Assembly: GCA_038064515.1 (NCBI GenBank)
Contig: JBBTSY010000005.1
Location: 50,093 to 114,092, forward strand
DNA: 64,000 nt
Origin: Patescibacteria group bacterium
GTDB taxonomy: Bacteria > Patescibacteriota > Minisyncoccia > 2-02-FULL-40-12 > GWA2-44-9
Reading direction: 5' to 3'
Positions 19,058 to 62,128 of the stretch are shown here, one piece after another. The notes under the pieces are model-generated. The model searched no databases. It saw nothing but the letters and a program-made list of their open reading frames with translations, and was not told the DNA's origin. The first letter of the stretch is position 1. The number at the start of each line of letters is the position of its first letter. The position numbers and the translations under genes were made by a program.

Positions 19058-22000
19058 CTACAAGGTTGGCTCTGTTGATATTTCTGGGGTTGGTTCTGAA
19101 CTTATCGAAGGAATTGGAGTGATTTCTGGTGTTACACTAATACTCGGTTCAGGAGTTGATTCCGCAACTGGTTCTAGCGTTGGTTCTACTGAAGGTTCTG
19201 GCGTGACTGATGGCGCTGGAGTTGATTCCTGGGTTGATTCAGGAGTCGGTTCTAGCGAAAACTCAGGTGTTGCCGAAGGTGTTGCAGACGGCGCGATAGC
19301 ATCTATCGCTGTGCCCTCCGTAGCTTCTAGCGAAGGACGGGGCGAGAATACCGTCTTAGCGTCTTTGATTGCCAAAGCAATCCAACTGAATTGGATATCA
19401 AACGGTGCAGGTTTGTTGAGTTTCACCGTAAATCCTTTAACATTCTTGTTGGTTACAATGTATCTGATGTCGCTATCAAACAGCAACTGCTCGTCTGCTT
19501 CGCTGGCTGAAGCGGTATTTAAAGATATGGTCGTATTCACAACCGGCTGGTTCAAGTATTCCCTCTCAAATGAAACACTAGCATACGTCGCGCCTTTGGA
19601 AACCACCAAAAATCCTCCGGTATCATTATTGAAGTACGGCCGGCCAAAGAATTCAACATCGCTGTTGAACAGCACCAGGTTGCCTTCAGAACCGATGCGG
19701 TCCACCGTTAAGCCACCGTTGAACACTGCCGAACCCTCAACGCTCAAACCGGCATTAAGAGCAATGTCTTCCCTCGGATTCCACGAGTTGCTGGCCAGAG
19801 CCATTAACTGCTCACCGGTCAAGGCCATCTGGCTGTTGAGCGCATACACGCTATTGGCTAACACGGCTAGCTGATTATCCATTAGCTCTAAAGCTGGGCT
19901 ATCGATCTCGTCAGCAACGATTTTCAAGGCTCTCAATTCATTCAAGTAAGCCAAGCCGACAATACTCAAATTATTTGCCGAAATCCTAGAGGCGATGATT
20001 TCTTTATTAGCAACTATCAGGTCAGTCACGACCTGCGAAGGGATTTCCTGATCCGGATCCTGCTTCAATAGCGCGGTCAGTATGGACTGCGTATCGCCCA
20101 AATCAGACATAAGGCCGGAATTTTCTATTCTGCCGCTGTAGTAGGTGTTATTGATGAATAACAATATGGTACCGATGTTTTTTTGGTCGTTGTAATTTTC
20201 AAGTGCTTGCCCGATAACCCGGCCAGCTTTCGATGCGCGCATGGCTACACCGGGTCGGGTGGCTGAATTAGTAAGATAGTCCCCCACCTTAATTGGACCA
20301 TTCTCGGTAGACACTTTCACGGGCACACGGCCAGCTAAAGCAATTGGCACATGCCCAGGTGGCAAATGTTCCAAGGCCTCAGCACCATAAGCAAATTTTG
20401 TACCAGTAATCAGGGCCGCTGGGTTGGTTGACACTACACCTAAGGGTAGCGAACCAGGCACGGCTCTATTTACATATTGAGAACTAGCCAAATCTGCCGA
20501 AACAATCTCACCGGCAGTAAGCGTTGAATCGGATGTCGGAAACGCTTCGGCATAGTCAACACATCCCGGATTTGGAGCACTTACACCGGTACATAGAGCC
20601 GATCCGCCAGCATGTGAGTTAATGCTTCCGCGAATACCCAGCCGTCCGGCATTACTCATAGAAGCCAAGGTCAAACTGTTAGAATCCTGAACCCAGAGAA
20701 CACCGTGAGGAAGCTGCCTTGATGATGAAGCTAAAACCGTAATGGTTAGGGCGCTATTGCCAGCTGCAAATTCTGATACATTGGAATTAATATCCAGACC
20801 GGGATTAGAAGCCGAGGCAGTAGTATCAACCTGCAAAATATCATCATCTCCGCCAGCATCCTGAATCGTAAATGCTCTAGCGCTATTGCGGAAAATATTG
20901 AAGTCACCTACAGATGCTGATGCATTAGTGGTAAAGGCAACCTTTCCGTCATCAGTAATAGTAAACACCGTAGTACCGGCGTCTTGGATTATAAAATCTC
21001 CGGTCCCCTTAAGGTTTAAATTAAAGTCCAAACCATTTATTGAAATTGAAGCAAAGCCACTAAGTTCCAAACCGGTCAGTTGGGTCGAGGCAGCCGTAAA
21101 TTTCCAGAAACCGGTAATTGTTTCATTGAAAGCACGTGAAGCAGGGCCATTGGTCCAATCTAACCTGACAAATCCTTCAGAAGCAGTATTAGATATATTA
21201 AAGTGATTTGCTTCGAAGGAAATGCTGGTAATTTTTACTTGGGAACCACCGATTAAACCAAAGTCGAGGCCTGAGAATGATGAACCGCCACCAGTGTCAT
21301 CAGTCAGACAAGAGAATTTACCAGTAGTCGAGTTCCAGTTTAAAGTTTGAGTTTCAGTATTACAGTTGGAGCCAATGCTAGAGAAGGCAGAGCCAAACAA
21401 GGCTGAGACTGAGGCGTTACCGACTACTTCAAAGTTAGCGCTAGAAGAAGCTCCCAGGGTGAATGTCTGGAGTTGGGTCCAGGTATTGGCTAGAGATCTT
21501 GAGGCCGGGGCACCAGCATTAGACCAATCTAGGTCAATGACTGATTCGGAAGCAGTGTTGGAAAGAAGGAAGATATTAGATTCAAAGGAAAGCGACCCAA
21601 TATGGCTGAATGTCCCTCCAGTCTCACGGACTGAGATGCCTTTAGGACTGGAGCTGCCGCCACTGTTTTGATCAGCTTCACAATTGAACTTACGGTTAGT
21701 TAGATCATAGGTGACTTTGTTAGCGGTGCCATCACAATCAGAGAAGGTGCCGCCATCAGTGTCTTGGAGATAGAATTGAGAGATAGAGGCATAACCGACG
21801 ACTTCAAAGTTAGATGATGTTGAAGCATTGGTGAAAGTAGCCAGGCCGGTCACACCGAGGGTGGAAGAGAGCGTTGTAGCCCCAGTTACGCCAATAGTAG
21901 AGCCAAATGTCGTCGCTCCGGAGATAGAAGCTGTACCCCCCACTTCTAAGTTGGTGTTAGTCGTACCGCCAGCATTGATACCTAAGCGGGTGTTGCCAGT

Positions 22001-25000
22001 TAATTCAAAGTTAGTAGAGACGGAAACACCGCCATTGAAGGTAGCTAAGCCAGTATTGGTGAAGGTCAGAGCAGCAGTAACGGGACCATTTAAGGCAATG
22101 GCGCCTGTGCCAGTGGTAAAGGTGGAAGCACCAGCTTGGGTAAAGTTACCAGATATGGAGGCAGCACCGCCCACTTCCAGGGAGGTGTCAGTGCTGCCAC
22201 CGGGATTGATGCCTAAACGGAAGTTACCGGTTAATTCAAGGTTTGCCCCGACTGACGCTCCTGCAGAGAATGTTTGTAGTCCAGTGAAGGTGTTGGCTCC
22301 TAAGATGGCTAAGGTACCCGCGGTGGGTAGCGTCACCGATGTGACGCCGCTCACCGTTAATGTGGTAGCAAAGTTGCCCGATATGGTTAGGGTAGAAGCA
22401 GCATTGTTGGCTACACCCGTGCCACCGAAAGCAGGAGTAATAACGCTGCCGTTCCAGGTGCCGGTCGTAATAACACCGGTATTAGGAGTGATAACGAGGC
22501 CATTGTAGCCTGTAGCACCTGTGACAGCGCCACTCAAGGTAACAGCGCCAGAAATGGAAGCCGTACCTCCGATTTCAAGAGTCTGGTTGGTATTAATTAC
22601 GTTGATGCCTAACCTGGTATTGCCAGTTAATTCAAAGTTGGTGGAGACGGAAACACCGCCGGAGAAGGTAGCGAGGCCGTTTGCGGTGAGTCCTGATGTA
22701 GCAGTAATGAGTCCCGAGATCGTCGGTGTTGCCGTCCAAGATGTGGGCGAAATAGTAAGTCCGGAACCTGCAATGGTCGTTCCCGTTGACGCATTACCGA
22801 AGGTAATTGCGCTGTCTCCGGAATAAACTGTCGCTTTCACCGTGCCACCAGCCGCCTCAAACGTGCCTGAAACAGATGCTCTGCCAGTAAGGGAGATGAG
22901 GCCATTGGTCGCATCGAAGGTAATTCTGTTGGCCTGGCCAGAATCCCTGATGTCATTGCCGGATACCTCGATATCGTCGTTGAAGTCGACGAAACCGGTG
23001 GCCAGGTTGAGGCGAGAGGCGCCTGTGGAGTCCTGGATATCATTGCCATTGATGCGAATGTCATCGGAGATAGAGGCTAGGCCTACTACTTCTAAGGCTA
23101 CGGAGAGATTTGATGTGTTCACGCCGATACCGGTGGTGTTGACGAAGAAGTCAGAGGTACCTACTTCGAAGTTCGAAGAGACAGAAGCATTAGCAAGGGT
23201 GGTTTGGCCCGTAACATCGAGGGTAGATGAGAGGGTTGTAGCCCCAGAAACGCCAAGTGTAGAGCCAAATGTCGCCACTCCTGAGATACTCGCAGTGCCG
23301 CCGACTTCTAACCGAGCACTCGTGATTGGGCCCGCATTGATGCCCAAGTTGCCGGTAGTGATCTCAAAGCCGGTGGAAGAAGAAGCACCGCCGGAGAAGG
23401 TGGCAAGACCGGTGGTAGTGAGCGTAGAAGCAAAGGTTGCGTCATCTTGCACATCCAAGGTGCCGGCTGAGTTCAGGGTGAGGTTTCCGCTCGTGGTGCC
23501 GATGGTGGTGGTGTCCAGCGTGATGTTGTCAAAGGTGAATAGGCCGGCATCCGTGATGGTGAGGTAAGTCGTGCCGCCACGCTTCACAATGAAGTCTCCG
23601 GTGGAGTCCAGATCAACCAATAGGCCAGTCGCACCGCCGGAAAGCGATGCCCCAGAGCGGAATTCCCAAAGGGAGGTGATGGTTTCTGCCGCATTGACAT
23701 GCGCAACATTCACCGAAAGCGCCGCATCGTTCACGCTTCCTCCAGAACCTACGGTTAAAGTATCCGAAACCTCGTCATCAGCCCACGGGTTGGCGATGTT
23801 TACCCAGTTGCCCGCAATAGTTTCAGCTTCGGAGAGCGATGCGGGTCCTGCGGCTCCCCAATCTAATCGGACCAGTGCTTCTGTTCCCGAAAAGGAAACG
23901 GCAAATGAACCGCCTTCAAAGGATACGGAAGAAACATTCGTGCCGCTTCCGCTGAATCCCTCGCGTACCTCAATTAAGGCCCCGCCCCCTCCTCCTGCGT
24001 CGTCATCCGTACATGAGAAAAGCCCAGTTTCTCCGCTCCAATTCAATGCTTTGTTGCCGGCACCTGCATCGCAGTCAGTGAGGCCTGCACCGAATAATGC
24101 GGAGACAGATGCTGTGCCAATCTCAAGGGCATTGGCAAACTGGCCAGATGCCGCAGTGAATCTCCAGAGACCGGTAATCTGCTCATTAGCTGCCCGTGAC
24201 GCGGGACCGTTGGTCCAGTCAAGGCGCACAATCGATTCAGTTGAACCTGAAGCAGCCAGCGTAAACATATTACCTTCAAAATTGAGCGTTGTTGCTGCGG
24301 CGAGATTCTGGGTGCCTCCTTCTTCGGTTTTAACGCCTGATCCTCCGCCGCCCCCATCTGCCAGACATGAGAACCGTCCCGTTGACGAGCTCCAATTCAG
24401 AGTTTGGGATTCATCACTGCAATTGGTAAGCCCCGCGCCGAAGAGAGAAGAAGCAGAGGCATAGCCGACCACTTCAAAGTTCAACGATGCAGTAGCGTTG
24501 TTTGATATGAGGATACGACCAGAATCAACGGCCAAGGTGCCGAATTTGCCCGTAGTGGCTTCAAAGAATGATCCGGAGGCGTTCACCAGCGAGAGGTTAT
24601 CCGCAAGCGTCAAGGTTGGGTTTCCGCTCACCCCATTGCCGTTGGAAACATCAATTTTGTTCGTCGTGCCGGTGATTGTCCGGGCGGCGAATGAATTAGA
24701 TCCTGTAACCGTGAGGAGGCCATTCGATCCGCCAGTTCCCGCAAGTGCGGTTAAGGTAGCATCTAATGGCTGAAGTCCGGATACATTAAGCGTATTCGTA
24801 GACCATGAGAGGTTCGTGCCTGCAGTAATTCTCGTTGAAGGCGTATCTCTGAATAATTCCCACGCTGTCTGCGACGCGGTCAGTGGCATAGTAAACCCCG
24901 TATCAGCACCGAATGTATTGCCTGACCATGCAAAACCAGTTCCTGCTGTGATGCGCGTACTTGGAATATCGCGGAATGTTTCCCAGTTGCTTGTTGATGC

Positions 25001-28000
25001 GGTGAGAGGAATGTTAAATCCAGCCATAAGCGTGATGGCATCTCCGGAAAGCGCTAGGCCGGTAGCCGTTACGCTAAGATTCGTCATGCCAGAAATATTC
25101 ACTGAAGCGCATGTAAGGGTATCCCCAATCGTTGTGACGAACTGGTTAGTGCATCCGGTTGGATAGTTCTGCAATCCGGTCCAATTAATAGTGATGGCAT
25201 CAGCAATGGATGCATCGGTGAGAGGCGTACCAAGAGTCAATATTGAGATTGACGCAGTCCCGATTTCAAGCGTATTCGTAAATTGGTTCGATGCGGCAGT
25301 GAATCGCCATGCTCCTGCAATAGTTTGATCAGCCGACCGTGAAGCAGGTCCACCTGAACCCCAATCAAGATTGATTCGCGCTTCGATGGATCCCGAAGCA
25401 GCGAGTGTGAATTTTCCGCCGTCAAAATTTAATATCGTTGTCGTGGAAAGTATCTGCGCACCGCTTTCCTCAGTCTTAAACTCCGCTCCGCCCGCTCCGC
25501 CCGCATCAGCTCCGCATGAGAATCTTCCCGTGGTCGAATTCCATAGAAGATTCTGCGATTCGGCACTGCAATCAGTTGCGGGAAACGCGGAACCAAAGAG
25601 CGCCGACACTGATGCATTATTACGGAACTCCCATGCTCCCGTCACCGTTTCATTGAGCGAGAGTGACGCGCCACCGCCACTGATGGTCGTCCATGTAAGA
25701 ACACCGTTTCCGTCAGTCGACAAAGCTTGATTTGCCGTGCCATCGGCTCCTGGCCATGTATAGCTTACGTTTCCAAGCTTCAGCGCCGCGGGCAACTCCA
25801 GCACGCCGGACGTCGCGGTGATTGCATTTCCATCAATTCGAACGTTATCGACAGTAAGTACCGAACTGCTTAGCCCTACTTGATGGTTATTGCCGGTATA
25901 CTGCAATGGAAACGGAACCCTCTGCTGTAACGACAAGAGCGATCCTTTGATCGCATCGAGTTCTTCTCGGACGCTGTTGGACACAGGAGGAGCGTTTACC
26001 GTAATTGCACTTCCTACATAGCGCCTTATGAGAGTATTTAATTCATTGATCTGACGCTGGGAGAATGTTGCGGATGCCGATGGCGTCGGAGTGCCCGCCG
26101 GAGAAGGAGTGGGTGTCGGCCGACGCCGCCCGAGAGGGAACAGCCGCGGGAGTGCCGCAGTGGTCTGGTTGGATGCTCGCAGGATCGAAGGAGACTTTAT
26201 TGAAGCGATTGGTGCTGGAGCTTTTGATTTTCGAAAAGATGCGAAAAGTGTCGAAAGCGAAGCTTGCTGGGACCAAAAGGTCCGATGGGAAGCATACGTT
26301 TGGTCTGCCAGCGTACCGACCTTTCCTTGGACGATATTCCTGAATGATAGTGCTAAGCGGCCAAAGCCCAACGAGAATTGCTGGGTCTGGGATGGAAGAA
26401 CGGGCCGCGCCAAGGGAGCTGTCTTAAAATGCGTAATGCCTTCGTTCAAAGATCTCCATCCCTCTTCTGCTACTGATTCAAATCCTTGAACCTGCGGACC
26501 CGCAAGAGTTCTTTTGCCAAATGAGTGCGGATCCTTGATGGCGATGCGGGTTTTAGTGGTTCCTCGGTTTGTCCATGCGGTATGAATCTGCCATGCGGTT
26601 CCCCCTAATCCCCGATCAACGGCTTTGACCAGAATGGCCATGCCGCGGTCGATGGGGTTGAGGAAGTAGCCGTTGAATGCTTCAAGCTGTGCGAGAAGCG
26701 AGCCCCGCTCCTTAACCGGCAAAGGCAGAGTCATATCTGGCGTTTTTACTACATACGAGAGAATTCCCAGCTGTTCAGATGCACGGAGAATAGGGGGAGG
26801 AATTGCTGCTGGCCGTGCCGGAGTTCGACGAGGTATAGCAGCGATACCAGCGGTTTTCGATTGCTGTTGGAGAAAAATTTTATGGGCCACATACGTATTA
26901 TCAGCAATAGAACCGATGCGATGAACCAATATATCAGTCGCCCATCCAAGCAGATTTTCAACGGGATTATCTACATTGAGAGAGAATGAGACCTGGCTCG
27001 GCTCTCGGCGCGGCATCTGAGGTCCAGACATGAATGCAATCTGGTTTTTTGCGATACCCTTTCGCATGCCGCCTTCAATATCTTTAACGGCGGTATGTGC
27101 AAAAGATTCAAAATCTCCAACACGAGGATACGCCAATTTTTCCTTTCCAAACATCTGCGGATCTTTGATAGCGATTGGGCGAGGATCGCGGTTTGGTATC
27201 CACGACAATACTTGAGGAATATAATTCGATCCCGTAGCAAGCTCTTGATCGACGGTGCGGACAAGAGCGCTCATCGCACGGTCGATGGGGTTGAGGAAGT
27301 AGCCGTTGAATCCTTCAAGCTGTGCGAGAAGCGGTTTCCATGTATATGCTTGAACCGTTGCACCTTTCGTCAGCGGCAAAGGAATCGGAATGTCCGCTTC
27401 TTGCACGAATGCCATCAGAGGTTCTGCAAATGCTTGTCTCGATCGCTCGAGATCATTTGAAAAATCAGAATGCTTTGCCGGAAGTAATTCAGGAACATGA
27501 GCATTCTGTTTGCTCACCTCGTGAGCGCTGGCACTCCAGAAAATGAAAAGGGCAAGGAGGATAAGCCCCAAACCACGTGGTGATGGTCTCAGGTTTATCC
27601 TACTTGCCCGAATTCGTTCGGCTATGTGGAAAAGAGCTAGTGAAGGAACTGTTATGGGCTTTCGAAGAAGGCCGTTCTCCGGAACCTCTTTAGAGATCTG
27701 GACACTTTCAAACGCGCGTACTCGTCGTTGGATCTCTGTCACTTTTTTATACGCTTCCAACGAACCGCGCGATACGAACCATCGCTTGTCTTCCCGTATG
27801 CTCCTCACCCGTCCTTGGCGCGCTAACCGTCCGATGTGATCAGCATCGTATCCGAACTCCTGCGCCAAGACTGAGGTAGCAGCATAGGTTTCTCCTCCAA
27901 CTTCTCGCACCGACGATTCACTCGTGGGACTCTTCTCGTCTTGGGCGAGCTGGGCGGAAGCGGCGGTTTGCTTTTTGATTGTATCTGATCCCTGCAAGGT

Positions 28001-28003
28001 CAC
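19058..28003 (-). CDS. Giant (2981 aa) single-pass membrane-anchored surface protein with multiple internal repeat families
   Basis: An uninterrupted 8.9-kb ORF. There is a TM helix at about aa 144-160 (GLGLILLALFIFWSAS). Two tandem ~200-aa repeats follow, each with LAQLE(G/A)FNGYFLNPIDR. Next come at least five ~100-aa modules carrying a conserved Cys pair and an LDW(T/S)NGPASR motif, then numerous T/G/S-rich ...TGLATFSGGVSVSTNFELTGNTRLGIN... repeats. The C-terminus is a PT/E-rich linker. Confidence 0.8.
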   Translation of the reverse strand: MTLQGSDTIKKQTAASAQLAQDEKSPTSESSVREVGGETYAATSVLAQEFGYDADHIGRLARQGRVRSIREDKRWFVSRGSLEAYKKVTEIQRRVRAFESVQISKEVPENGLLRKPITVPSLALFHIAERIRASRINLRPSPRGLGLILLALFIFWSASAHEVSKQNAHVPELLPAKHSDFSNDLERSRQAFAEPLMAFVQEADIPIPLPLTKGATVQAYTWKPLLAQLEGFNGYFLNPIDRAMSALVRTVDQELATGSNYIPQVLSWIPNRDPRPIAIKDPQMFGKEKLAYPRVGDFESFAHTAVKDIEGGMRKGIAKNQIAFMSGPQMPRREPSQVSFSLNVDNPVENLLGWATDILVHRIGSIADNTYVAHKIFLQQQSKTAGIAAIPRRTPARPAAIPPPILRASEQLGILSYVVKTPDMTLPLPVKERGSLLAQLEAFNGYFLNPIDRGMAILVKAVDRGLGGTAWQIHTAWTNRGTTKTRIAIKDPHSFGKRTLAGPQVQGFESVAEEGWRSLNEGITHFKTAPLARPVLPSQTQQFSLGFGRLALSFRNIVQGKVGTLADQTYASHRTFWSQQASLSTLFASFRKSKAPAPIASIKSPSILRASNQTTAALPRLFPLGRRRPTPTPSPAGTPTPSASATFSQRQINELNTLIRRYVGSAITVNAPPVSNSVREELDAIKGSLLSLQQRVPFPLQYTGNNHQVGLSSSVLTVDNVRIDGNAITATSGVLELPAALKLGNVSYTWPGADGTANQALSTDGNGVLTWTTISGGGASLSLNETVTGAWEFRNNASVSALFGSAFPATDCSAESQNLLWNSTTGRFSCGADAGGAGGAEFKTEESGAQILSTTTILNFDGGKFTLAASGSIEARINLDWGSGGPASRSADQTIAGAWRFTAASNQFTNTLEIGTASISILTLGTPLTDASIADAITINWTGLQNYPTGCTNQFVTTIGDTLTCASVNISGMTNLSVTATGLALSGDAITLMAGFNIPLTASTSNWETFRDIPSTRITAGTGFAWSGNTFGADTGFTMPLTASQTAWELFRDTPSTRITAGTNLSWSTNTLNVSGLQPLDATLTALAGTGGSNGLLTVTGSNSFAARTITGTTNKIDVSNGNGVSGNPTLTLADNLSLVNASGSFFEATTGKFGTLAVDSGRILISNNATASLNFEVVGYASASSLFGAGLTNCSDESQTLNWSSSTGRFSCLADGGGGGSGVKTEEGGTQNLAAATTLNFEGNMFTLAASGSTESIVRLDWTNGPASRAANEQITGLWRFTAASGQFANALEIGTASVSALFGAGLTDCDAGAGNKALNWSGETGLFSCTDDDAGGGGGALIEVREGFSGSGTNVSSVSFEGGSFAVSFSGTEALVRLDWGAAGPASLSEAETIAGNWVNIANPWADDEVSDTLTVGSGGSVNDAALSVNVAHVNAAETITSLWEFRSGASLSGGATGLLVDLDSTGDFIVKRGGTTYLTITDAGLFTFDNITLDTTTIGTTSGNLTLNSAGTLDVQDDATFASTLTTTGLATFSGGASSSTGFEITTGNLGINAGPITSARLEVGGTASISGVATFGSTLGVSGATTLSSTLDVTGQTTLANASVSSNFEVGTSDFFVNTTGIGVNTSNLSVALEVVGLASISDDIRINGNDIQDSTGASRLNLATGFVDFNDDIEVSGNDIRDSGQANRITFDATNGLISLTGRASVSGTFEAAGGTVKATVYSGDSAITFGNASTGTTIAGSGLTISPTSWTATPTISGLITATSGLTANGLATFSGGVSVSTNFELTGNTRLGINVINTNQTLEIGGTASISGAVTLSGAVTGATGYNGLVITPNTGVITTGTWNGSVITPAFGGTGVANNAASTLTISGNFATTLTVSGVTSVTLPTAGTLAILGANTFTGLQTFSAGASVGANLELTGNFRLGINPGGSTDTSLEVGGAASISGNFTQAGASTFTTGTGAIALNGPVTAALTFTNTGLATFNGGVSVSTNFELTGNTRLGINAGGTTNTNLEVGGTASISGATTFGSTIGVTGATTLSSTLGVTGLATFTNASTSSNFEVVGYASISQFYLQDTDGGTFSDCDGTANKVTYDLTNRKFNCEADQNSGGSSSPKGISVRETGGTFSHIGSLSFESNIFLLSNTASESVIDLDWSNAGAPASRSLANTWTQLQTFTLGASSSANFEVVGNASVSALFGSAFSSIGSNCNTETQTLNWNSTTGKFSCLTDDTGGGSSFSGLDFGLIGGSQVKITSISFEANHFNISNTASEGFVRLDWTNGPASRAFNETITGFWKFTAASTQLTGLELSGFASISINGLDFNLNLKGTGDFIIQDAGTTVFTITDDGKVAFTTNASASVGDFNIFRNSARAFTIQDAGGDDDILQVDTTASASNPGLDINSNVSEFAAGNSALTITVLASSSRQLPHGVLWVQDSNSLTLASMSNAGRLGIRGSINSHAGGSALCTGVSAPNPGCVDYAEAFPTSDSTLTAGEIVSADLASSQYVNRAVPGSLPLGVVSTNPAALITGTKFAYGAEALEHLPPGHVPIALAGRVPVKVSTENGPIKVGDYLTNSATRPGVAMRASKAGRVIGQALENYNDQKNIGTILLFINNTYYSGRIENSGLMSDLGDTQSILTALLKQDPDQEIPSQVVTDLIVANKEIIASRISANNLSIVGLAYLNELRALKIVADEIDSPALELMDNQLAVLANSVYALNSQMALTGEQLMALASNSWNPREDIALNAGLSVEGSAVFNGGLTVDRIGSEGNLVLFNSDVEFFGRPYFNNDTGGFLVVSKGATYASVSFEREYLNQPVVNTTISLNTASASEADEQLLFDSDIRYIVTNKNVKGFTVKLNKPAPFDIQFSWIALAIKDAKTVFSPRPSLEATEGTAIDAIAPSATPSATPEFSLEPTPESTQESTPAPSVTPEPSVEPTLEPVAESTPEPSISVTPEITPIPSISSEPTPEISTEPTL
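26649..26699. repeat. Intragenic near-identical direct repeat, copy 1 (partner at 27277..27333)
   Basis: cgatggggttgaggaagtagccgttgaat(g/c)cttcaagctgtgcgagaagcg occurs twice, ~630 bp apart, inside the giant gene. This matches the tandem protein-domain duplication. Confidence 0.8.
27277..27333. repeat. Intragenic near-identical direct repeat, copy 2
   Basis: The same ~55-bp sequence as at 26649, with 1-2 mismatches. Confidence 0.8.
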
Positions 28004-54764: not shown

Positions 54765-54856
54765 GGAGACGTGTCAGAGTGGTCTAATGAGCCTCTTTGC
54801 TAAAGAGGTGGGGGCTTTAACTCCCCCCGGAGGTTCGAATCCTCCCGTCTCCGCCA
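54765..54856 (+). tRNA. tRNA-Ser (GCT), type II with long variable arm, CCA encoded
   Basis: GGAGACG...CCTCT-TTGCTAA-AGAGG-TGGGGGCTTTAACTCCCCCC-GGAGG-TTCGAAT-CCTCC-CGTCTCC-G-CCA. Confidence 0.9.
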
Positions 54857-54911
54857 GATGTCCAAGTTCGAACCGAGGTAGAATAAGGGTTCTTGGACTA
54901 AAATAAAGATT

Positions 54912-55751
54912 ATGCCAAAGTTATTAACTAAAAAAGAAGCTGTTGAATTTCTTGGTCTTGATGACAAGGTTTTTGATAACTACTTCAAAAATGCGGCTGA
55001 ATTTCCATGCATCGATAGGGACGGCGGCAGAGGTCGTTTTTACTTTGACGAAAATGTCCTACGAAAATGGAAGGATAGTTTAGCGTGGAGAACCGTTGAT
55101 CTGAATAAAGACGACTATGCCCTGTGTTTAGATTTTGCACTAGCACAACACTTTCGTAATTATGTGCAGTCAGATTTTGGCACTGGACGACAAAGAGAGT
55201 TTGGGCAAAAAATAACAAACTGGGTCAAGGGACAGCTTGGAGAGGTTGCAGTAAAGAAATTTCTGAAGCGAGAGTTTAATGTAGATATTGAACTTGATTT
55301 TGATATTCGCGATAAAATCGTTTTGCAAGACATTACAGCTGTCAAGGAGAATGGAAAAATGAGAACGCCAAAAATAGGCGTTGGTATAAAATCGTCTAAA
55401 CCAAAAAGCGCTTTCTTGGTACTCGGAGAAAATGAGATAAGGATAAAGGAGCGCAGATCAGATGTTTACATCTATTGTCGCCCTGATATTCCCGATGATC
55501 ATCTTTTAAGGTTAACGAAAGAGGAAGTAAACGAAGCCGTAAAAAATAAACCTCATTATTCCAAATACAAAGATTTAATGCCGGATTTCGTAAATATACC
55601 CTGTGAAGTTGTGGGTTGGTGTCACTATTCTGAATTAAGAGAAACAAAACAAATCCCCGGACAAGAATTTGATGGTATCCGATTTGTTAAAGAATCTGGA
55701 CTTTTAAAGAAAACGAAGAAGGACTGGCAAGAGCTTATAAAGCAACTGTAG
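54912..55751 (+). CDS. Hypothetical protein, candidate type II restriction endonuclease (by position only)
   Basis: Convergent with the adjacent C5-MTase, with the stops overlapping. It has an N-terminal HTH-like segment and acidic clusters (DIELDFDIRDK). No confident catalytic motif was found. Confidence 0.3.
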   Translation: MPKLLTKKEAVEFLGLDDKVFDNYFKNAAEFPCIDRDGGRGRFYFDENVLRKWKDSLAWRTVDLNKDDYALCLDFALAQHFRNYVQSDFGTGRQREFGQKITNWVKGQLGEVAVKKFLKREFNVDIELDFDIRDKIVLQDITAVKENGKMRTPKIGVGIKSSKPKSAFLVLGENEIRIKERRSDVYIYCRPDIPDDHLLRLTKEEVNEAVKNKPHYSKYKDLMPDFVNIPCEVVGWCHYSELRETKQIPGQEFDGIRFVKESGLLKKTKKDWQELIKQL

Positions 55752-56880
55752 CGCCGACTTCTATTTCATCAAATAAACTTACTATCTCTCGTGCGCTAGC
55801 TTCTCCGTTGGTAAGTTTCGATTCCACGAACTCGTAGGGAATCCCTGCGAAAGTTTTTAGCACTGCAGAAATAACGGCTTGTGCTCCAACTGGAGGCACG
55901 GCCATACCGATTTGTTTTCTCGCGCTTTCTTTGGAGCCTTCGAATATAAAGCTATCGGGGAAAGATTGCAATCGTGCTCGTTCTCGGTTTGTAAGAGCGC
56001 GATGTTCTGACCAGTGATAAACATGCGTTCCACCCCCTCCGCTTCCGGTGATTGTATAGGCGGGTTTTTTAGGATCTAATCGTTTATAGATTTGACTCAT
56101 TCGAGCACCTTTCACGTTTAGTCTTAAGTGTTGAGGTATCCCCTCATACCAAGCATTTTCTCCGGCTGGGATATGCTTCAGCCGCTCAACAACACCTGCG
56201 GATTGCTTGGTAAGTTCGTGATTTTGCGCGTCATCTGATATTCGCGGGTTTTCGATAGCTTCGCGCGCACTCACATAGTTATTCCTTGAAGTCGGAGCGG
56301 GAACTTTGAATCTCAATCCCAAATCTTTTCTTATGCCTATAATGACAATACGATGTCTTTGTTGTGGTACTCCGTATTCTTCAAACTTATATAAGTGAGG
56401 GGTAAGAACATAGCCCCTGCCCGCCTCGCCCAGGTCTTTTAAAATTTGTTTAAAAGCGTTTCCACCATTTGCACTCTGTAAGCCGCTAACATTTTCTGCG
56501 ATGAACCATTTTGGATTATGCGTATTTATAGCCCTGACCCCATGAGAGTAGAGAGGACCAAATTTTCCATCAAATCCTTTTTGTTCCCCAACAACACTAA
56601 AGTCATTACAAGGAAATCCAAAAGCGAGCACATCAAACTTTGGCACCTTTTTAAAGTCTATTTCTCTGACATCTGCGCAAACAACCCCTTTCTCATTTCC
56701 GTTATGGATATTACGAGCGTATGTTTTGCAAGTATCCGCATCGTAATCGTTCGCCCAAACTGGCTCAATGCTATATATGCTGTCTTTATTTTCAGCAAAA
56801 GATCGGATGGCTCCAAGAGCAAGGCCACCGGGTCCGGAGAATAATTCTGCTAATTTAAATTTAATTTCTTTTTTCTTCAT
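55735..56880 (-). CDS. dcm: DNA (cytosine-5)-methyltransferase
   Basis: Motif I FSGPGGLALG, motif IV GFPCNDFSVVG and the ENV motif are all present. Length is 381 aa. Confidence 0.9.
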   Translation of the reverse strand: MKKKEIKFKLAELFSGPGGLALGAIRSFAENKDSIYSIEPVWANDYDADTCKTYARNIHNGNEKGVVCADVREIDFKKVPKFDVLAFGFPCNDFSVVGEQKGFDGKFGPLYSHGVRAINTHNPKWFIAENVSGLQSANGGNAFKQILKDLGEAGRGYVLTPHLYKFEEYGVPQQRHRIVIIGIRKDLGLRFKVPAPTSRNNYVSAREAIENPRISDDAQNHELTKQSAGVVERLKHIPAGENAWYEGIPQHLRLNVKGARMSQIYKRLDPKKPAYTITGSGGGGTHVYHWSEHRALTNRERARLQSFPDSFIFEGSKESARKQIGMAVPPVGAQAVISAVLKTFAGIPYEFVESKLTNGEASAREIVSLFDEIEVGATVAL

Positions 56881-56906
56881 AAATTCTCAATTTATTTTAC
56901 CATTTA

Positions 56907-57530
56907 TTAAAATTCTCGCCTAAGCACACCCACAACCCTACCTTGTATTTCAACATTCTTTTCATAAAATGGCTTCATATATTTGTTTGCCGGGACAAGT
57001 TTTATTCGCCTTTTCTCTCTATAAATTTTCTTGAGAGTAACTGCGTTTTTATCGGGCAAATAAGCAACTGCTTTTTCTCCATCATTAACCGCTTGTTGTT
57101 CACGAACAATAACAATATCGCCGTCTGATATGCCCTCCTCAATCATACTTGTTCCGGAAACTTTTAAAGCGTAATAATTTGCACCTCTCGAAAGCATACT
57201 GCGCGGTACTTCTATTGGTTCGGGGTTTCTGATTGCCTCAATCGGCCCTCCAGCGGCAATAAGTCCCATGAGCGGGATTTCTACCAAGTCTCTTTTCTGA
57301 TCGTTGAATGCTTGAATCGAACGCCTTTTACCTTTATCCGCAGAAAGTAAATTTTTCTTTCGTAGATAGGAAATGTGTTGGTGAATTGTCGGGATAGAAA
57401 CCCCAAAATTATCGGCTATCTCGCCAAGAGAGGGAGAGTAGCTCTTTTCTCTTTGAAATTTTGTAACGAATTGCAAGATTTCTGCTTGCCGCTTTGAGGG
57501 CTTACCTGCTCCAACTGGCTTCTTTTCCAT
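56907..57530 (-). CDS. LexA/CI-like S24-peptidase repressor (N-terminal HTH)
   Basis: The C-terminal region has the Ser (VSGTSM) and Lys (VTLKKIY) of an S24 autopeptidase dyad. The gene is immediately upstream of and co-oriented with dcm. Confidence 0.7.
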   Translation of the reverse strand: MEKKPVGAGKPSKRQAEILQFVTKFQREKSYSPSLGEIADNFGVSIPTIHQHISYLRKKNLLSADKGKRRSIQAFNDQKRDLVEIPLMGLIAAGGPIEAIRNPEPIEVPRSMLSRGANYYALKVSGTSMIEEGISDGDIVIVREQQAVNDGEKAVAYLPDKNAVTLKKIYREKRRIKLVPANKYMKPFYEKNVEIQGRVVGVLRREF

Positions 57531-57583
57531 ATCTAAATTATAATACCTAAAGATAACCTAAACAAGAGAAGTTATCCCCAACC

Positions 57584-59029
57584 ATGAAAACAGGAAGAAA
57601 TGACCAGTGCCCCTGCGAAAGTGGCAAAAAATATAAAAAGTGTTGTTTAGAGAAAGATGAGAAAAGAACAAAACTAAAACAACGAGTTATGAGAATAAGC
57701 CGTCGCGATTTTATTTCGGGCCCATATAGGAATTGTCCAAATCCGCAGTGTTTAGCAGAAAATTCTTTTGGTGTCTTTACGCCAATTTCTGAATCGAGGT
57801 CATATTCGAGAGAGTGTATTAAATGTTGGCATAAAGAACATTTTGGATTACCGAGAATTAAAAAGAAAATCGTGTATCTGGATCAATTTGTCATTAGTAA
57901 CTTAGTTAAGTTGTTGGACAAATCATGTCCGAGTCACCAAAAAATAAAAGCTGATCCATTTTGGGAGTCTTTATTCATAAAACTCGAAAAGGCCTCTAAG
58001 CTCCAAGCCATAGTTTGTCCCGATAGCTTCTATCACAGAGATGAATCAATGACGGGAGGTGTTGAGTTTAAATTAATGAAAAGGTTGTATGAACATTTTT
58101 CAAGCGGCAAAACTCTTTATCCAAGTATCATAATCGAGAAAAATCAAATTACTCATCATTTTGAGTCATGGCTTGATGGTAAAAAAGCCAGCTTTGAATT
58201 TAAGCCGGAAGACATTGCTTTCGAAAAAGATTTACATAGCTGGTCAGTTGGCTTGAGAATTTCAGTAGGCGGTAATCCATACCCCGGACAAGTAGAAGGT
58301 CTCCATAAGACGAATGAAACAACTCGTGAACAGCTGAAAGATGTTTGGACAAGGTGGCAAAATGAAAAAGAAGTTGGATTTGTCGAGCGTATCAAAGAAG
58401 AAACATCAGGGCTTTGGAAAGGTCTAATTAGCGCGGCAAGACAATTTGCTATGAGGAGAAACAATGCAATGACAAAGATGGCGGCAGGTGAGAATTATGA
58501 AATGGATTTGGATGATTTTTTGCCACCGATGTCCAACGACATAATAGAAACTCTCACGAGGATTGCTCAAGCTAAAGGACTACAAGGTAATCAGATTCCC
58601 GAGTCAATTGTGAGTTACTTTGGTAACATAGATTCTTTGCTTGAAATACCACAAATTAGAATAAGCTCCGTAATGTTTGCGGGGTGGGCACACAGAGCGG
58701 CAAATGGCAAAAAGAATCCTCCTAAATCTACAGCAGACGTACAATTTATCTCAAGCTATTTGCCGTACTGCGATGCACTATTTGTGGATAAAGAGTCAGC
58801 GATACTTCTCAGAGAATTTCCAAAAGGTACACCGTCAAAATTTAGGTTGGCAGAGTTCAATGCTCACATCTTCTCTCTCGCGAATAAAAAACAGTTTTTG
58901 GATTACCTCGATCAATTGGTTGCGGATATTCCAGCAGAGCAAATGGAAATATTAAAAGATATGGAAGGAGAGGATTATGGAAAGCCATATTGGAGTATAA
59001 TTGAGCATGAGAAACGGGAGAGGGTATGA
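57584..59029 (+). CDS. SEC-C-motif zinc-binding protein with a large uncharacterised C-terminal domain
   Basis: The N-terminal CPCESGKKYKKCC is a SEC-C metal-binding motif. A second Cys4 ribbon (CPNPQC...CIKC) follows. The remaining ~400 aa show no recognisable motif. Confidence 0.5.
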   Translation: MKTGRNDQCPCESGKKYKKCCLEKDEKRTKLKQRVMRISRRDFISGPYRNCPNPQCLAENSFGVFTPISESRSYSRECIKCWHKEHFGLPRIKKKIVYLDQFVISNLVKLLDKSCPSHQKIKADPFWESLFIKLEKASKLQAIVCPDSFYHRDESMTGGVEFKLMKRLYEHFSSGKTLYPSIIIEKNQITHHFESWLDGKKASFEFKPEDIAFEKDLHSWSVGLRISVGGNPYPGQVEGLHKTNETTREQLKDVWTRWQNEKEVGFVERIKEETSGLWKGLISAARQFAMRRNNAMTKMAAGENYEMDLDDFLPPMSNDIIETLTRIAQAKGLQGNQIPESIVSYFGNIDSLLEIPQIRISSVMFAGWAHRAANGKKNPPKSTADVQFISSYLPYCDALFVDKESAILLREFPKGTPSKFRLAEFNAHIFSLANKKQFLDYLDQLVADIPAEQMEILKDMEGEDYGKPYWSIIEHEKRERV

Positions 59030-59033
59030 GTTT

Positions 59034-59267
59034 TTAAATCGAATAATCAACTGCATTTTTCCCTTTATCGGATTTTGGTTTAGGAACCTCAAACCATTCC
59101 GGATGTTCTTTGTGCATATGCCTCAAATTCTTTATAATTGGATCAAGAGTCCAGAAAGTTAGCCTTCTATAAGCCGTTTTAGGTTCTAACTTCGGGACAT
59201 CGTCCCCGCCAAAATCACATCTCGAAAAATCAAGATATGAAAAAAAATAAACAAGTGTTTCTACCAA
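59034..59267 (-). CDS. Small hypothetical protein
   Basis: The ORF is the only evidence. Confidence 0.25.
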   Translation of the reverse strand: MVETLVYFFSYLDFSRCDFGGDDVPKLEPKTAYRRLTFWTLDPIIKNLRHMHKEHPEWFEVPKPKSDKGKNAVDYSI

Positions 59268-59422
59268 AATGGATGCGGTGGTTTTTTATGCCGTTATTTG
59301 TTGGTATTTGGGGATTGGTTACCTATCTCGAATTTTTCAGCCCTGCCAACAGAAATGAGTTAGGATTTATTGGATATCTTGGCATGAGTGTCCTTTTCTT
59401 GGGCCTGGCACTTGTCCTGTGA
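59237..59422 (+). CDS. Small membrane protein (2 TM)
   Basis: Hydrophobic. The ORF is the only evidence. Confidence 0.25.
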   Translation: MKKNKQVFLPKWMRWFFMPLFVGIWGLVTYLEFFSPANRNELGFIGYLGMSVLFLGLALVL

Positions 59423-59740
59423 TTTATGTCAAGCGGAAAACTGCCGGCATATGTTATTGAAGAAGAGGAGTAAAAAGCTATGAATGGTGTTATAATCAGC
59501 ACGTACTAACTAATGCAACATATTGTGAAAAAGTATCTTGTATGGGCTCTAGTTATACTAATATTGGGTGGAGGGGTGTGGATGGTTGCAAACAGTGAGG
59601 TTCTTCGGACTAAAGCCGCCGATCTTTGGCCCGATTAAGGGAGACTCGATATCATAGCTCTTAGCGCAATTACCGCAAATATTTTCAAACACAGACATCA
59701 CTCTAGATGTGATTGAGCCCATCGCAACGCGATGGGCTCT

Positions 59741-60766
59741 TCAGGCGATAGACGCCTCCTTTCTTTCACTACGATAAAAGATCTCAAAGACGACGTGGTC
59801 TTTGTGCGCATCTTGCGGACGAAGTCCACTGATGTCACGGAGTTGGATCCCGGCCAAACGCTCCTCTGGCCCGGAGCACACCGTACGAATGAGCTTGCGC
59901 TCCTGCGTTTCGCCGCCTGACCAGCCCGTTATGCGAGCAACGATCTCGGCAAGCTGGTAGTTAAACCGGATTTTCCGGTAAACCCCCCTGAACAACTGGG
60001 CAGAAAGCAGTTCCACCAACATGTAGGGCTGCCAAGTACGCCTGCCCTTCTTGGGGCAACGGGCCTTGAGCTCCTCGATGAGCCACGCCACATCTTTGCG
60101 CCTTTCAAAGAAGAGCCGCTCGTTTTTGTACTGTGACATGATCTTGTCGATGAACCGAGCAAAAGCTAGATGCGGGTCACGACCATGAAACTGGAGCCAG
60201 TACGCGTCGGCAAGTAGGTGCCGGTCCCTTCGTGCGACGCTGAAACGGACACCCGCGGGAACTGGTCGGAGTCCGCTCTCTTCATTGAGTCCGCTCTTCT
60301 TGTAAAAGCGCACCCGGTTCATCTTAAGAAAAAACGGATTGCTAGGTCCGCACTTGCGGCCTAGCACCATACTGTTCGCCCGTTGTTGAAGAATCTGGAA
60401 GATCCGAGCCGAGAGCCGTGCGTAGTCTTTGTGGCTCAAGTGGCAAAGCGGGTAGCGTGCACCATGCCAGCGACCATTGCACGCCTCATGGTACGGAATT
60501 CCCTTTCCCAACCCCACCTCTAGGAGCACCGCATCGGAAAAATGCGTCTGCCCGGACTGTCCGGGACCGATTACCGCCAGGACATTCAACGATGGCCGAG
60601 GGTTGAAGTGTTCTCGGACACCGTCCGGCAACACCTCCAATACCACTGCGGCATGTTGACGAACACGCTCTGCATCGCGAGCAATGATCTGGGGAACGTC
60701 TTCCTGCCGCCGTCGGAACAGCATCAAAGAACTCACCTCACTTTCGACCTCACCCGGAGGTCCCAC
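59741..60766 (-). CDS. Arg-rich hypothetical protein, GC-rich gene
   Basis: 341 aa with no recognisable catalytic motif. A perfect 11-bp hairpin (gagcccatcgc-aacg-gcgatgggctc) immediately follows the stop. GC content is clearly above the window average. Confidence 0.45.
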   Translation of the reverse strand: MGPPGEVESEVSSLMLFRRRQEDVPQIIARDAERVRQHAAVVLEVLPDGVREHFNPRPSLNVLAVIGPGQSGQTHFSDAVLLEVGLGKGIPYHEACNGRWHGARYPLCHLSHKDYARLSARIFQILQQRANSMVLGRKCGPSNPFFLKMNRVRFYKKSGLNEESGLRPVPAGVRFSVARRDRHLLADAYWLQFHGRDPHLAFARFIDKIMSQYKNERLFFERRKDVAWLIEELKARCPKKGRRTWQPYMLVELLSAQLFRGVYRKIRFNYQLAEIVARITGWSGGETQERKLIRTVCSGPEERLAGIQLRDISGLRPQDAHKDHVVFEIFYRSERKEASIA

Positions 60767-60856
60767 TACTTGCTATAATGATTCATTAAAAATGTTCGAG
60801 CAAGGCGCTGTGTTCATAAAAAGTTGAAAGCCGCCGTTCGGTACGTCGAACGACGG

Positions 60857-62128
60857 CTATTTCCTGTTGTTTTTCCTATTTTGTGGCAGTCCGTTCACCA
60901 CGGACACATTCGGAAGCATCGCGTGAGGATACATCACCCTACGTAGGAGTAGAAGCATCCCAAATGCGTAGAATGGGGCGCTCGGAATCGCCATGCTACA
61001 CAGATGAGACAACGGGCACACACGCGCCACATCAGCATAGCGTGACGGCCAGAGTCCGGGATTGGCTTCCAAAACTTCTGGGTAAAGCAACTTGATGTTC
61101 CGACGCGACTGGCGGGTCTCCTTCCGGCCTCTCCCCCTACTTCTGGTTTGGAGTTCGCGAGGGCACAATTCACGGCTGAGCACCCACAAGGCCGGGTTGA
61201 TCGCAAGGTGGGAAAACCCGTGCTTGACCATGAAGGGCTGTGACCACAAGGCGATCGTGTCAGTAATGCGCTCTGTCACACGAACGATATTCCTGCCATT
61301 AAAGTCAGCCGGGTGGATTTTCTTTCCTTGGAACGGTTGGAGATCTTCCGGCTCCACGACACCGGTTGCAAAAAGCGCACGTTGAGCGTGAAAGTCCACT
61401 GGGATCGGTGCTGGAAAGACGGGAATGAGCCCCTTCTCCTGAAGCCAGATGGTGAACAGCGAGAAGATCTTCCGACGTATGCCTATGAAGGAACGTAGGC
61501 CCTTGTTGATCTTATTCTTGTAGTCGATCCGGGCATACGCTTGTTCGAAATCTGTAACTCCCGCAAAGATGTTGAGCGTGTTGCCTCCCCAGCGCTCAGC
61601 GAGCGTGACGGAGTTGTGGTACCAGGAAGCCGCAAACTCATCGAGCTTGTAGAGATCCTCGTTCTTGCCACTCTTTTTCTTTTTGCGAGGCTTCGTAAGC
61701 TTGAAAAGAGCCGTTTGCTCTGGCTCGGGCACCCAACTCCTTCGTTCTGTAACCACCAGCTTGATGACTTCCTCTATCTTCTTGGGCATCCAACGAGAGG
61801 CAACCGCAAGCGGATCGAAGAGATCTGGATGTTTCACGCAGAGGTGGTTCACCCACTTAAAGGGGTCTTCGCTCACAACTCCCCCGCGCTGGGTGATGGC
61901 CGCATACATGAAGTAGTTGGCTGCCTGTATCGGATCTTCCGGAATCGGCCAGCGATCTTGAGGAAGTTTGATTCCTTCGAACACGCTAGCCTTGCGTTCC
62001 CAGAAGTCTTGCAAGATGGTAAAGAGCTGGACTGCACGTTCTTCGTTGAACCGAAGCTTCATGGACTCACCTTCTTTCGTTCGGTTTGAGAACGTAGCCA
62101 GCGTAACAGGCAATTTTAAATGATACAA
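60857..62128 (-). CDS. Hypothetical protein, GC-rich gene (true start possibly at internal MKLRFNEER)
   Basis: 423 aa and unrecognised. It is co-oriented with and upstream of the 341-aa ORF. Confidence 0.45.
   Translation of the reverse strand: MYHLKLPVTLATFSNRTKEGESMKLRFNEERAVQLFTILQDFWERKASVFEGIKLPQDRWPIPEDPIQAANYFMYAAITQRGGVVSEDPFKWVNHLCVKHPDLFDPLAVASRWMPKKIEEVIKLVVTERRSWVPEPEQTALFKLTKPRKKKKSGKNEDLYKLDEFAASWYHNSVTLAERWGGNTLNIFAGVTDFEQAYARIDYKNKINKGLRSFIGIRRKIFSLFTIWLQEKGLIPVFPAPIPVDFHAQRALFATGVVEPEDLQPFQGKKIHPADFNGRNIVRVTERITDTIALWSQPFMVKHGFSHLAINPALWVLSRELCPRELQTRSRGRGRKETRQSRRNIKLLYPEVLEANPGLWPSRYADVARVCPLSHLCSMAIPSAPFYAFGMLLLLRRVMYPHAMLPNVSVVNGLPQNRKNNRK

Follow-up and report, generated by a model that had tools for sequence, protein, structure and literature searches.

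A LexA-family protein as the probable controller of a mobile type II restriction-modification cassette in Patescibacteria

A stretch of 64,000 nucleotides from a Patescibacteria group bacterium of Hainich groundwater (GenBank assembly GCA_038064515.1, contig JBBTSY010000005.1, positions 50,093 to 114,092 of the forward strand), referred to here as the window, carries next to a tRNA-Ser gene a mobile block in which a gene for a LexA-family protein stands directly upstream of a DNA methyltransferase gene. The reading favored here, with moderate confidence, is that the block is a mobile type II restriction-modification (R-M) cassette in which the gene for a self-cleaving repressor of the LexA family comes first in the methyltransferase operon, and that a gene for a SEC-C/zinc-ribbon/PIN effector adjoins it head-to-head at a 53-bp promoter module. 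The most likely role of LexA is that of a dedicated controller of the methyltransferase that responds to DNA damage, since the two genes are recurrently linked and since fusions of the two proteins retain an invariant cleavage site and catalytic dyad. The features of the locus, in window coordinates, are as follows.

54765..54856, + strand: tRNA-Ser (GCT), predicted by ARAGORN; left edge of the low-GC island.
54904..57582: mobile block of 2.68 kb comprising the restriction gene, the C5 methyltransferase gene, the LexA gene and the 53-bp promoter region, defined by blastn.
54912..55751, + strand: candidate type II restriction endonuclease, 279 aa (PADLOC REase_II PDLC03411, 7.7e-20).
55735..56880, − strand: C5 cytosine DNA methyltransferase, 381 aa (PF00145, 1.2e-74, full length; TIGR00675 dcm; PADLOC MTase_II, 5e-117).
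56881..56906, − strand: 26-bp gap between the LexA and methyltransferase genes, with a possible extended −10 inside.
56907..57530, − strand: LexA-type repressor, 207 aa (PF01726, PF00717 and TIGR00498).
57531..57583: predicted bidirectional promoter/operator module, 53 bp, recognized by its conservation; promoter elements assigned by eye.
57545..57562, − strand: direct repeat TTTAGGT-N4-TTTAGGT with a period of 11; best operator candidate.
57552..57576: perfect inverted repeat GATAAC-N13-GTTATC spanning the −35; alternative operator candidate.
57584..59029, + strand: SEC-C/zinc-ribbon/PIN-like protein, 481 aa (PF02810; AlphaFold model).

The low-GC segment begins right past the tRNA-Ser gene, and the GC content of positions 54900–59500 is 36–44% versus ~48% in the flanks. 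The restriction gene starts 55 bp downstream of the tRNA on the same strand. It is convergent with the methyltransferase gene, with a 17-bp overlap, so that the two form the adjacent methyltransferase and restriction endonuclease pair of a type II R-M system. Residues 1–55 of the restriction enzyme (positions 54912–55076) match an excisionase/MerR-like helix-turn-helix (HTH; PHROG 668, 3e-05). The window cassette has no separate C protein, and the fused HTH might act as the enzyme's own regulator.

The protein encoded upstream of the methyltransferase is, by its sequence, a bona fide member of the LexA family. It scores 155.4 bits against the TIGR00498 lexA equivalog model over residues 12–205, with a cutoff of 110.95, and contains the winged HTH domain PF01726 LexA_DNA_bind (3.5e-09) and the PF00717 Peptidase_S24 domain (3.7e-26). 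Alignment to the E. coli and Thermotoga LexA structures identifies A93-G94 as the cleavage site and Ser128 and Lys167 as the catalytic residues, corresponding to A84-G85, S119 and K156 of E. coli LexA. An initial annotation of the window, made from the letters alone, had described a 207-residue HTH-S24 protein with a Ser/Lys dyad, encoded immediately upstream of the methyltransferase gene. On alignment the dyad and the cleavage site are both intact, as in a full LexA-type repressor, and the LexA gene ends 26 bp before the C5 methyltransferase gene. Self-cleavage stimulated by RecA on single-stranded DNA would be expected of such a protein. No recA, uvrA, uvrB, dinB or ruvB gene was found within the window.

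The LexA gene and its promoter move between genomes. A search of 5.8 billion proteins with the window LexA returned 2918 homologues at E ≤ 1e-20, and the best 120 clusters are all 89–95% identical to it and derive from Shapirobacteria, Giovannonibacteria and Parcubacteria. Genome loci retrieved as homologous contexts of the window LexA, of the SEC-C protein or of LexA fusions are labeled L001, L162 and so on; the contexts were sampled through 12 exact-protein look-ups and one genome scan, and are a small sample. Positions 54904–57582 align by blastn to the Giovannonibacteria loci L166, L167 and L172 with 83.7% DNA identity over 2681 bp. The identity starts 48 bp past the tRNA and ends 1 nt before the SEC-C start codon. 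With L162, only positions 56872–57582, comprising LexA and the promoter, are held in common (86.8%), and the R-M genes of L162 are unrelated. LexA is 92–95% identical across cassettes versus 88% for the accompanying R-M genes, the figure found for both the restriction enzyme and the methyltransferase of the window when compared with their L166 counterparts. The flanking chromosomal genes are different at every LexA context. In addition to the set found in the window, the LexA-plus-promoter module (90–95% protein identity) heads four more, different R-M sets at unrelated chromosomal sites. In all six of the distinct contexts, which represent five R-M gene sets, a DNA methyltransferase gene lies 10–53 bp downstream of LexA on the same strand. 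The gene sets are listed below.

Window and L166–173: C5 methyltransferase and an unnamed restriction enzyme.
L162–165: Eco57I-like N6 and C5 methyltransferases, Alw26I-type restriction enzyme and C protein.
L184–186: two C5 methyltransferases, HNH restriction enzyme and C protein.
L200–202: 323-aa C5 methyltransferase, HindVP-type restriction enzyme and C protein.
L203: decayed copy of the L200-type R-M system.

The linkage to methyltransferases also takes the form of gene fusion. A HMMER search was run over 1.84 billion representatives of 50%-identity clusters and its best 150 matches were inspected. N-terminal LexA fusions, counted as proteins of at least 290 aa, account for 48 of these 150 nearest clusters, including 34 of those ranked 6–60. 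All 48 contain PF01726 and PF00717 followed by a DNA methyltransferase domain at the C-terminus, and the Ala-Gly pair, the Ser and the Lys are unchanged in every one. The methyltransferase domains belong to at least four Pfam families, namely N6_N4 (30 fusions), D12 (7), Eco57I/N6_Mtase (7/5) and C5 (3). One fusion family of ~506 aa comprises at least 120 clusters with 75–100% identity and has members in Jorgensen-, Falkow-, Taylor-, Yonath- and Gribaldobacteria, which are entered in public records either as 'transcriptional repressor LexA' or as 'adenine-specific methyltransferase'. The LexA domain of the fusion clade is only 41–45% identical to the window LexA. Repeated independent fusion of this kind is strong evidence that the LexA clade works together with R-M methyltransferases. 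The fusion open reading frames (ORFs) in the retrieved loci are as follows.

L174:2768–4291
L179:1081–2604
L001:1070–2935
L180:2734–4188
L187:4001–5521
L193:4001–5524

The gene that follows the fusion in L180 (L180:4193–4963) encodes a DUF6996/DUF6997 protein, possibly the cognate restriction enzyme.

The suggestion in the initial annotation that the S24 protein regulates the R-M system in place of a classical C protein holds in part. The link to the methyltransferase is strong and recurrent, with five R-M sets and with fusions among the closest relatives, and regulation would fit it. Replacement is not general, because an HTH_3 C protein is kept upstream of the restriction gene in the sister cassettes L162, L184, L187 and L200. 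In several sister cassettes LexA would supplement C control from the methyltransferase side.

The same protein could be read as a housekeeping LexA, that is, the global SOS repressor of the cell, beside which R-M and island genes were inserted, or which lies in a recombination hotspot near a tRNA, so that any effect on the methyltransferase or the SEC-C gene is incidental. The score above the lexA equivalog cutoff agrees with this, as do the single LexA expected in the small genomes of the Candidate Phyla Radiation (CPR), the adjacency of the islands to tRNA genes, and the intact LexA of L203, where the R-M genes decay. The SOS regulon and LexA of Patescibacteria are reportedly the subject of a comparative study by Sanchez-Osuna, Barbe and Erill from 2017 (Environ Microbiol 19:3465). 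A purely housekeeping role is nonetheless unlikely. LexA and its promoter are 87–95% identical across different CPR phyla in unrelated chromosomal contexts, LexA is more conserved than the R-M genes it accompanies, and no second operator copy occurs in the 64 kb. Moreover, its nearest relatives are fused to at least four families of methyltransferase, which adjacency at a hotspot cannot explain.

The tRNA genes beside which R-M/LexA islands are repeatedly found are of three specificities.

tRNA-Ser: window 54765–54856; L174:1969–2056; L162:13438–13522.
tRNA-Leu: L184:5912–5996; L187:8512–8598.
tRNA-Glu: L193:6549–6621.

The window and L174 have similar sequence right after the tRNA-Ser gene (CGCCAGAT..CCAAGTT.GAAC), and L162 and L174 have the same host flanks (Peptidase_M48 and CDP-OH_P_transf). 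This suggests that the islands at tRNA genes form a variable hotspot in which the R-M content is exchanged. A low-GC island at a tRNA gene would also suit an integrative element or prophage remnant in which LexA is a CI-like immunity repressor and the R-M and SEC-C/PIN genes are defense cargo. Serine recombinases or tyrosine integrases are indeed found near the sister loci L003–L007, L180, L187, L192 and L203, and a precedent exists in Thermus prophage modules, where a LexA-like repressor governs lysogeny and defense cargo lies between repressor and integrase (PMC11437467). The window island resembles these modules in having defense genes, including a restriction enzyme gene, beside a LexA-like repressor gene in a mobile element. 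It differs from them in that no integrase, recombinase or phage gene lies between the tRNA-Ser and IF-2 genes, and in that the relatives of its LexA are fused to methyltransferases, an arrangement that speaks for direct functional coupling rather than for a repressor that keeps an entire element under immunity control. In addition, the window protein matches the LexA equivalog and not only CI-type models, no LexA relative was found among the viral contigs of IMG/VR, and tblastn of the SEC-C protein against GenBank phages found nothing. An immunity repressor is therefore an improbable explanation of the locus.

The 53-bp divergent region at 57531..57583 was noted in the initial annotation for its two copies of ACCTAAA, which lie at 57545–57551 and 57556–57562 with a period of 11 and read TTTAGGT twice on the LexA strand. 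On this strand the region consists of GGGGATAAC (57579–57571), N5, a TTGTTT −35 element (57565–57560), a 17-nt spacer, a TATAAT −10 element (57542–57537), 6 nt and the ATG. The spacer is filled by TTTAGGTTATC/TTTAGGTAT. Because the −10 lies only 6 nt from the ATG, the LexA mRNA would be leaderless or nearly so. The −10 is embedded in the palindrome ATTATAAT (57537–57544), hence TATAAT is read towards the SEC-C gene too; in all versions of the module the −10 is palindromic (ATTATAAT or AGTATACT) and reads as a −10 on either strand. The divergent arm leaves no space for a separate promoter. Across the repeats in L174 and L179, the SEC-C gene is faced by a perfect TTGACA-18-TATAAT promoter.

The region is almost identical in L162, L184, L166, L200 and L203. 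In the fusion clade the corresponding promoter consists of GGGGATAAC (TGTGGATAAC in L193), N5/6, TTGATT, TTCTAT, N5, TTCTAT and TATAAT, with an inverted ATAGAA past the −10. The layout of GGATAAC, −35, 17-nt spacer with 11-bp-period repeats and palindromic −10 is therefore kept in the unfused and fused clades alike. Between the clades the sequence of the repeats shifts along with the recognition helix while their position and period stay constant, so the repeats behave as expected of an operator. The direct repeats, proposed in the initial annotation as plausible operators, fall within the −35/−10 spacer of the LexA promoter, a conserved region, which is where an operator is expected, and TTTAGGT-N4-TTTAGGT is the best candidate. 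It has a single match in the 64-kb window, with no second copy there. The weight given to the repeats comes from their conservation, since the region is near-identical in at least five other contexts and the 11-bp period recurs in a diverged clade. LexA proteins that bind direct repeats with this period have been described, with GTTC-N7-GTTC as the site in Alphaproteobacteria (PMC8565304). The inverted repeat GATAAC-N13-GTTATC was considered as the sole operator but not adopted as such; the fusion clade keeps only its GGATAAC arm, whereas the layout of repeats with an 11-bp period persists.

The GGATAAC element (GGGGATAAC, or TGTGGATAAC in L193 and L180) is present 5–6 nt upstream of the −35 in every LexA or fusion promoter, whatever the subtype. 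It occupies positions 57571–57579 in the window and is also found upstream of LexA in L193, L180, L162, L174, L187 and L200. It resembles a DnaA box (TGTGNATAA) and could tie the expression of the methyltransferase to replication; alternatively, it could mark the point at which the module was joined by recombination.

The 26-bp gap upstream of the methyltransferase gene holds TGGTAAAAT, a possible extended −10 that may provide a basal, LexA-independent methyltransferase promoter. By eye, the same gap holds TGCTAAAAT in L166 and TATAAT in L162. No terminator-like site was predicted within the gap, and the LexA and methyltransferase genes are presumed to be co-transcribed.

On the other side of the module, the SEC-C protein begins with the two metal-binding elements recognized in the initial annotation. 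The N-terminal SEC-C zinc motif (residues 5–22) matches PF02810 with 35.7 bits against a cutoff of 20.4, and the four cysteines of the second, Cys4 ribbon (C51, C56, C78 and C81) are invariant in 24 homologues. Searches for the family yielded ~140 homologues and, in nearly 200 species genomes, 197 genome loci, from the CPR, Acidobacteriota, Verrucomicrobiota, Planctomycetota, Bacillota and Gammaproteobacteria. Many members lack the SEC-C motif, and the conserved core begins at the Cys4 ribbon. The AlphaFold model (24 sequences; pLDDT 88.9, pTM 0.82) adopts the α/β/α fold of PIN domains, with the core split by a helical insert of ~230 aa. Among the acidic residues, D100 (YLDQ), which closes the first core strand, is strictly conserved, as are E154 (DES) and D402, whereas D147 and D397 (CDALFVD) are nearly so. 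They are predicted to sit where core strands end or in the helix that comes next, and D100, E154, D397 and D402 would be consistent with the PIN acidic set. The protein is likely a nuclease of the zinc-ribbon/PIN-like type, in which the SEC-C zinc knuckle is optional. The possibility raised earlier that it belongs to a housekeeping family is not borne out, the fold being effector-like and of the PIN nuclease type.

Foldseek against the PDB gave no significant match for the protein, and in Pfam, NCBIfam, PADLOC and PHROGs only the SEC-C motif was matched. The fold is probably missed by Foldseek and Pfam because the ~230-aa helical insert interrupts it. A profile of the family compared with PDB sequences retrieved only the SEC-C (tail) peptides of SecA and YchJ, and in a metagenome scan all 80 loci matched residues 1–45 only, which contain the GKKYKKCC zinc motif. 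A plasmid search yielded two rhizobial matches, both annotated 'hypothetical protein', in an uninformative accessory region. With its 481 residues, its large insert and its optional N-terminal SEC-C motif, the protein differs from VapC-type PIN toxins and from nucleases of the Nob1 type that combine PIN and zinc-ribbon domains. It further differs from VapC-type toxins in lacking a Pfam PIN match and a VapB-type antitoxin; no conserved neighbor was found in 80 genome loci.

Genes of the SEC-C family are usually solitary. Those of the CPR often stand beside large serine recombinases and methyltransferases, and the CPR members appear to reside in mobile or defense islands. Within the close CPR subclade of the window protein the association with LexA recurs, as listed below with the identity of each SEC-C homologue to that of the window.

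L174–179 (91%): head-to-head with a 507-aa LexA–N6_N4 methyltransferase fusion, accompanied by a TaqI-type restriction enzyme.
L001 (73%): head-to-head with a 621-aa fusion.
L180–183 (70%): on the same island as an integrase and a 484-aa fusion.
L006 (62%): preceded on the same strand, 118 bp upstream, by a distant LexA.

The gene directly upstream of the SEC-C homologue in L180 (L180:6944–7870) has a weak Apea-like HEPN match (0.0026).

The divergent partner is effector-like and has its start codon 2–22 nt from GGGGATAAC; the SEC-C ATG is 1–4 nt from this element in the window, L001 and L174–179. In L162 and L184 the slot is taken by a 118-aa GIY-YIG protein and an 87-aa SNase-like protein, in L200 by a 292-aa trypsin-like protease (Trypsin_2) whose ATG is 2 nt from GGGGATAAC, and in L187, of the fusion clade, by a 488-aa SEFIR/TIR protein. 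In L203 a ThsB-type TIR gene is found 545 bp away. This suggests a fixed LexA–methyltransferase arm combined with an exchangeable, effector-like divergent arm, in other words an effector slot gated by LexA.

A number of observations weigh against the reading of the locus as a LexA-headed R-M cassette with an effector under the same control. The SEC-C gene is outside the conserved cassette, and an S24 gene lies within 8 kb of a SEC-C family gene in only 3 of 80 genome loci (77 are without one). The cassettes L193, L180 and L166 have no close divergent gene. A promoter scan did not call the LexA promoter, the −35 of which matches at 3 of 6 positions, and no recognizable −35 faces the SEC-C gene in the window. 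The operator could be either of two candidates, the direct or the inverted repeat. Taken in the window alone the direct repeat is not significant, with 0.38 matches expected at up to 2 mismatches and at least one match in 31 of 100 shuffled sequences; the inverted repeat, with its single exact match, is not statistically significant there either. In the defense island of L203 (L203:4398–7110) an intact LexA gene and promoter (94% identity) stand beside fragments of the C5 methyltransferase (136+175 aa) and of the HindVP-type enzyme (204+132 aa). Either LexA is of use on its own or the R-M genes began to decay very recently, and LexA may have a role beyond R-M. Finally, the mobile LexA could also be the only LexA of the cell and its global SOS repressor, which is compatible with a role in the cassette.

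The pairing of LexA with the SEC-C protein, for which co-occurrence of homologues had been named as a check, does not hold across the family, given the three loci with an S24 neighbor and the end of the mobile block before the SEC-C ATG. LexA and SEC-C as a fixed two-gene system were likewise rejected after neighbor clustering over the 80 genome loci showed no family-wide partner. These data bear on a further explanation, in which LexA and the SEC-C/PIN protein form a pair of the toxin-antitoxin type, LexA repressing or neutralizing a PIN toxin, and the R-M genes are unrelated neighbors. PIN toxins are normally accompanied by a DNA-binding partner, and the head-to-head SEC-C junction recurs with three versions of LexA/methyltransferase (window, L001 and L174–179). 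The same-strand arrangement in L006 and the shared island in L180–183 would also suit such a pair. Yet 77 of the 80 family loci have no S24 gene within 8 kb, the family has no conserved neighbor at all, the same LexA module is joined elsewhere to GIY-YIG, trypsin-like or TIR genes instead, and LexA is tied to a methyltransferase in every context. A toxin-antitoxin-like pair is accordingly held to be a poor account of the locus, with little chance of being correct.

Under the favored reading of a LexA-headed cassette, LexA dimers would bind the repeats lying across the −35, spacer and −10 of the LexA promoter and so repress the LexA–methyltransferase transcript. Bound LexA would probably block the divergent gene as well, because the −10 is palindromic and the ATG of the partner lies 1–4 nt beyond the module. 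On entry into a naive cell, where the repressor is absent, the methyltransferase would be made early and then throttled. At steady state it would remain throttled, with basal expression supplied by the possible extended −10 of the window, TGGTAAAAT. DNA breaks, caused by self-restriction of under-methylated DNA or by phage, would generate RecA filaments and trigger LexA self-cleavage at A93-G94. The ensuing rise in methyltransferase synthesis would act as a brake on autoimmunity, and the PIN nuclease would be released from repression to provide a second line of response, possibly an abortive one. The fusions would have this logic hard-wired, with cleavage detaching the DNA-binding head from the S24–methyltransferase body.

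A broader model may be put forward tentatively, with rather less confidence than the reading of the single locus. It posits an 'SOS-sensing R-M controller' of the CPR, a mobile LexA, either free or fused to at least four methyltransferase families, that gates from one bidirectional promoter both a methyltransferase and an exchangeable effector (PIN, TIR, GIY-YIG/SNase or trypsin-like). If this model is true, breaks from restriction or phage would raise self-methylation and arm a second-line abortive response together, and the module would represent a new regulatory class for R-M as well as a modular two-tier design for defense.

The regulators closest in function are the C proteins of type II R-M systems such as Esp1396I, AhdI and Kpn2I (PMC3488213, PMC6237814; reviewed in PMC3874152), which are thought to time the expression of methyltransferase and restriction enzyme after transfer to a new host (PMC3488213, PMC6237814, PMC3874152). 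As in these systems, a DNA-binding regulator is part of the mobile R-M cassette and would be autoregulated from operators, here candidate ones, in its own promoter. C proteins are Xre-type HTH_3 proteins of ~70–100 aa, normally encoded upstream of the restriction gene, and have no inactivating signal. The window regulator is not a C protein, being a 207-aa LexA with an S24 domain of the self-cleaving type that is encoded upstream of the methyltransferase gene. The sister-clade LexA–methyltransferase fusions share their overall layout with the SsoII, EcoRII, Ecl18kI and ScrFI methyltransferases, in which a fused N-terminal DNA-binding region represses the methyltransferase promoter (PMC3874152). 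However, the SsoII-type enzymes have a short HTH and no protease domain, whereas the CPR fusions carry a complete LexA that could be cut off upon DNA damage; the window LexA, unlike either, is a separate protein.

The window LexA has the family membership, domain order and intact catalytic residues of canonical LexA, and a toxin-like gene behind a promoter predicted to be occupied by LexA recalls the SOS-controlled toxins SymE, TisB and DinJ-YafQ (PMC3874152, PMC8565304). It departs from canonical LexA and the SOS system in being mobile and tied to R-M methyltransferases, with a single candidate operator in 64 kb and no DNA-repair gene seen nearby. The candidate operator itself is unlike CTGT-N8-ACAG or GAAC-N4-GTTC. 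Dedicated regulators that travel with the genes they control are found in the mobile lexA-linked mutagenesis cassette lexA2-imuA-imuB-dnaE2 and in CapH/CapP of CBASS, where a defense system is switched on by DNA damage and the protease is a separate metalloprotease. BrxR of BREX is a further defense regulator of this kind, with a WYL ligand sensor (PMC9122589). The present cassette differs from all three in that its cargo is R-M methyltransferases and its sensor would be LexA autoproteolysis. It may be described as an R-M controller based on a local LexA paralogue, with cargo that adds a new member to the PIN superfamily.

C proteins, self-repressing methyltransferases and antisense RNAs are regarded as the basis of R-M regulation, and to our knowledge none of these senses the damage that restriction causes. 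A LexA wired or fused to the methyltransferase would close this loop, with breaks leading through RecA and repressor cleavage to more methylation. LexA-type control of R-M and LexA–methyltransferase fusions are not mentioned in the R-M reviews PMC3874152 and PMC12707154 or in a 2026 preprint on CPR methyltransferases. A literature search, whose coverage did not extend to Sanchez-Osuna et al. 2017, found no published description of LexA-controlled R-M. The arrangement is apparently common in the CPR, with hundreds of protein clusters that databases label merely 'LexA'. Many of the genes called 'lexA' in the CPR may serve as local regulators of cassettes and not as global SOS repressors, which would affect reconstructions of SOS regulons in this radiation. 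The conserved 53-bp module with its exchangeable slot offers a search handle for new defense effectors, of which the zinc-ribbon/PIN family is an example.

Beyond the SEC-C gene, two minus-strand ORFs, one of 341 aa and one of 423 aa that is annotated as 401 aa, occupy positions 59741–62128, with a GC content of 53–57%. Neither has a match in Pfam, NCBIfam, PADLOC or PHROGs, and the segment resembles a further foreign insertion, distinct from the island, that lies between the SEC-C and IF-2 genes. Elsewhere in the window, a single ORF of 2981 aa extends over positions 19058–28003 of the minus strand.

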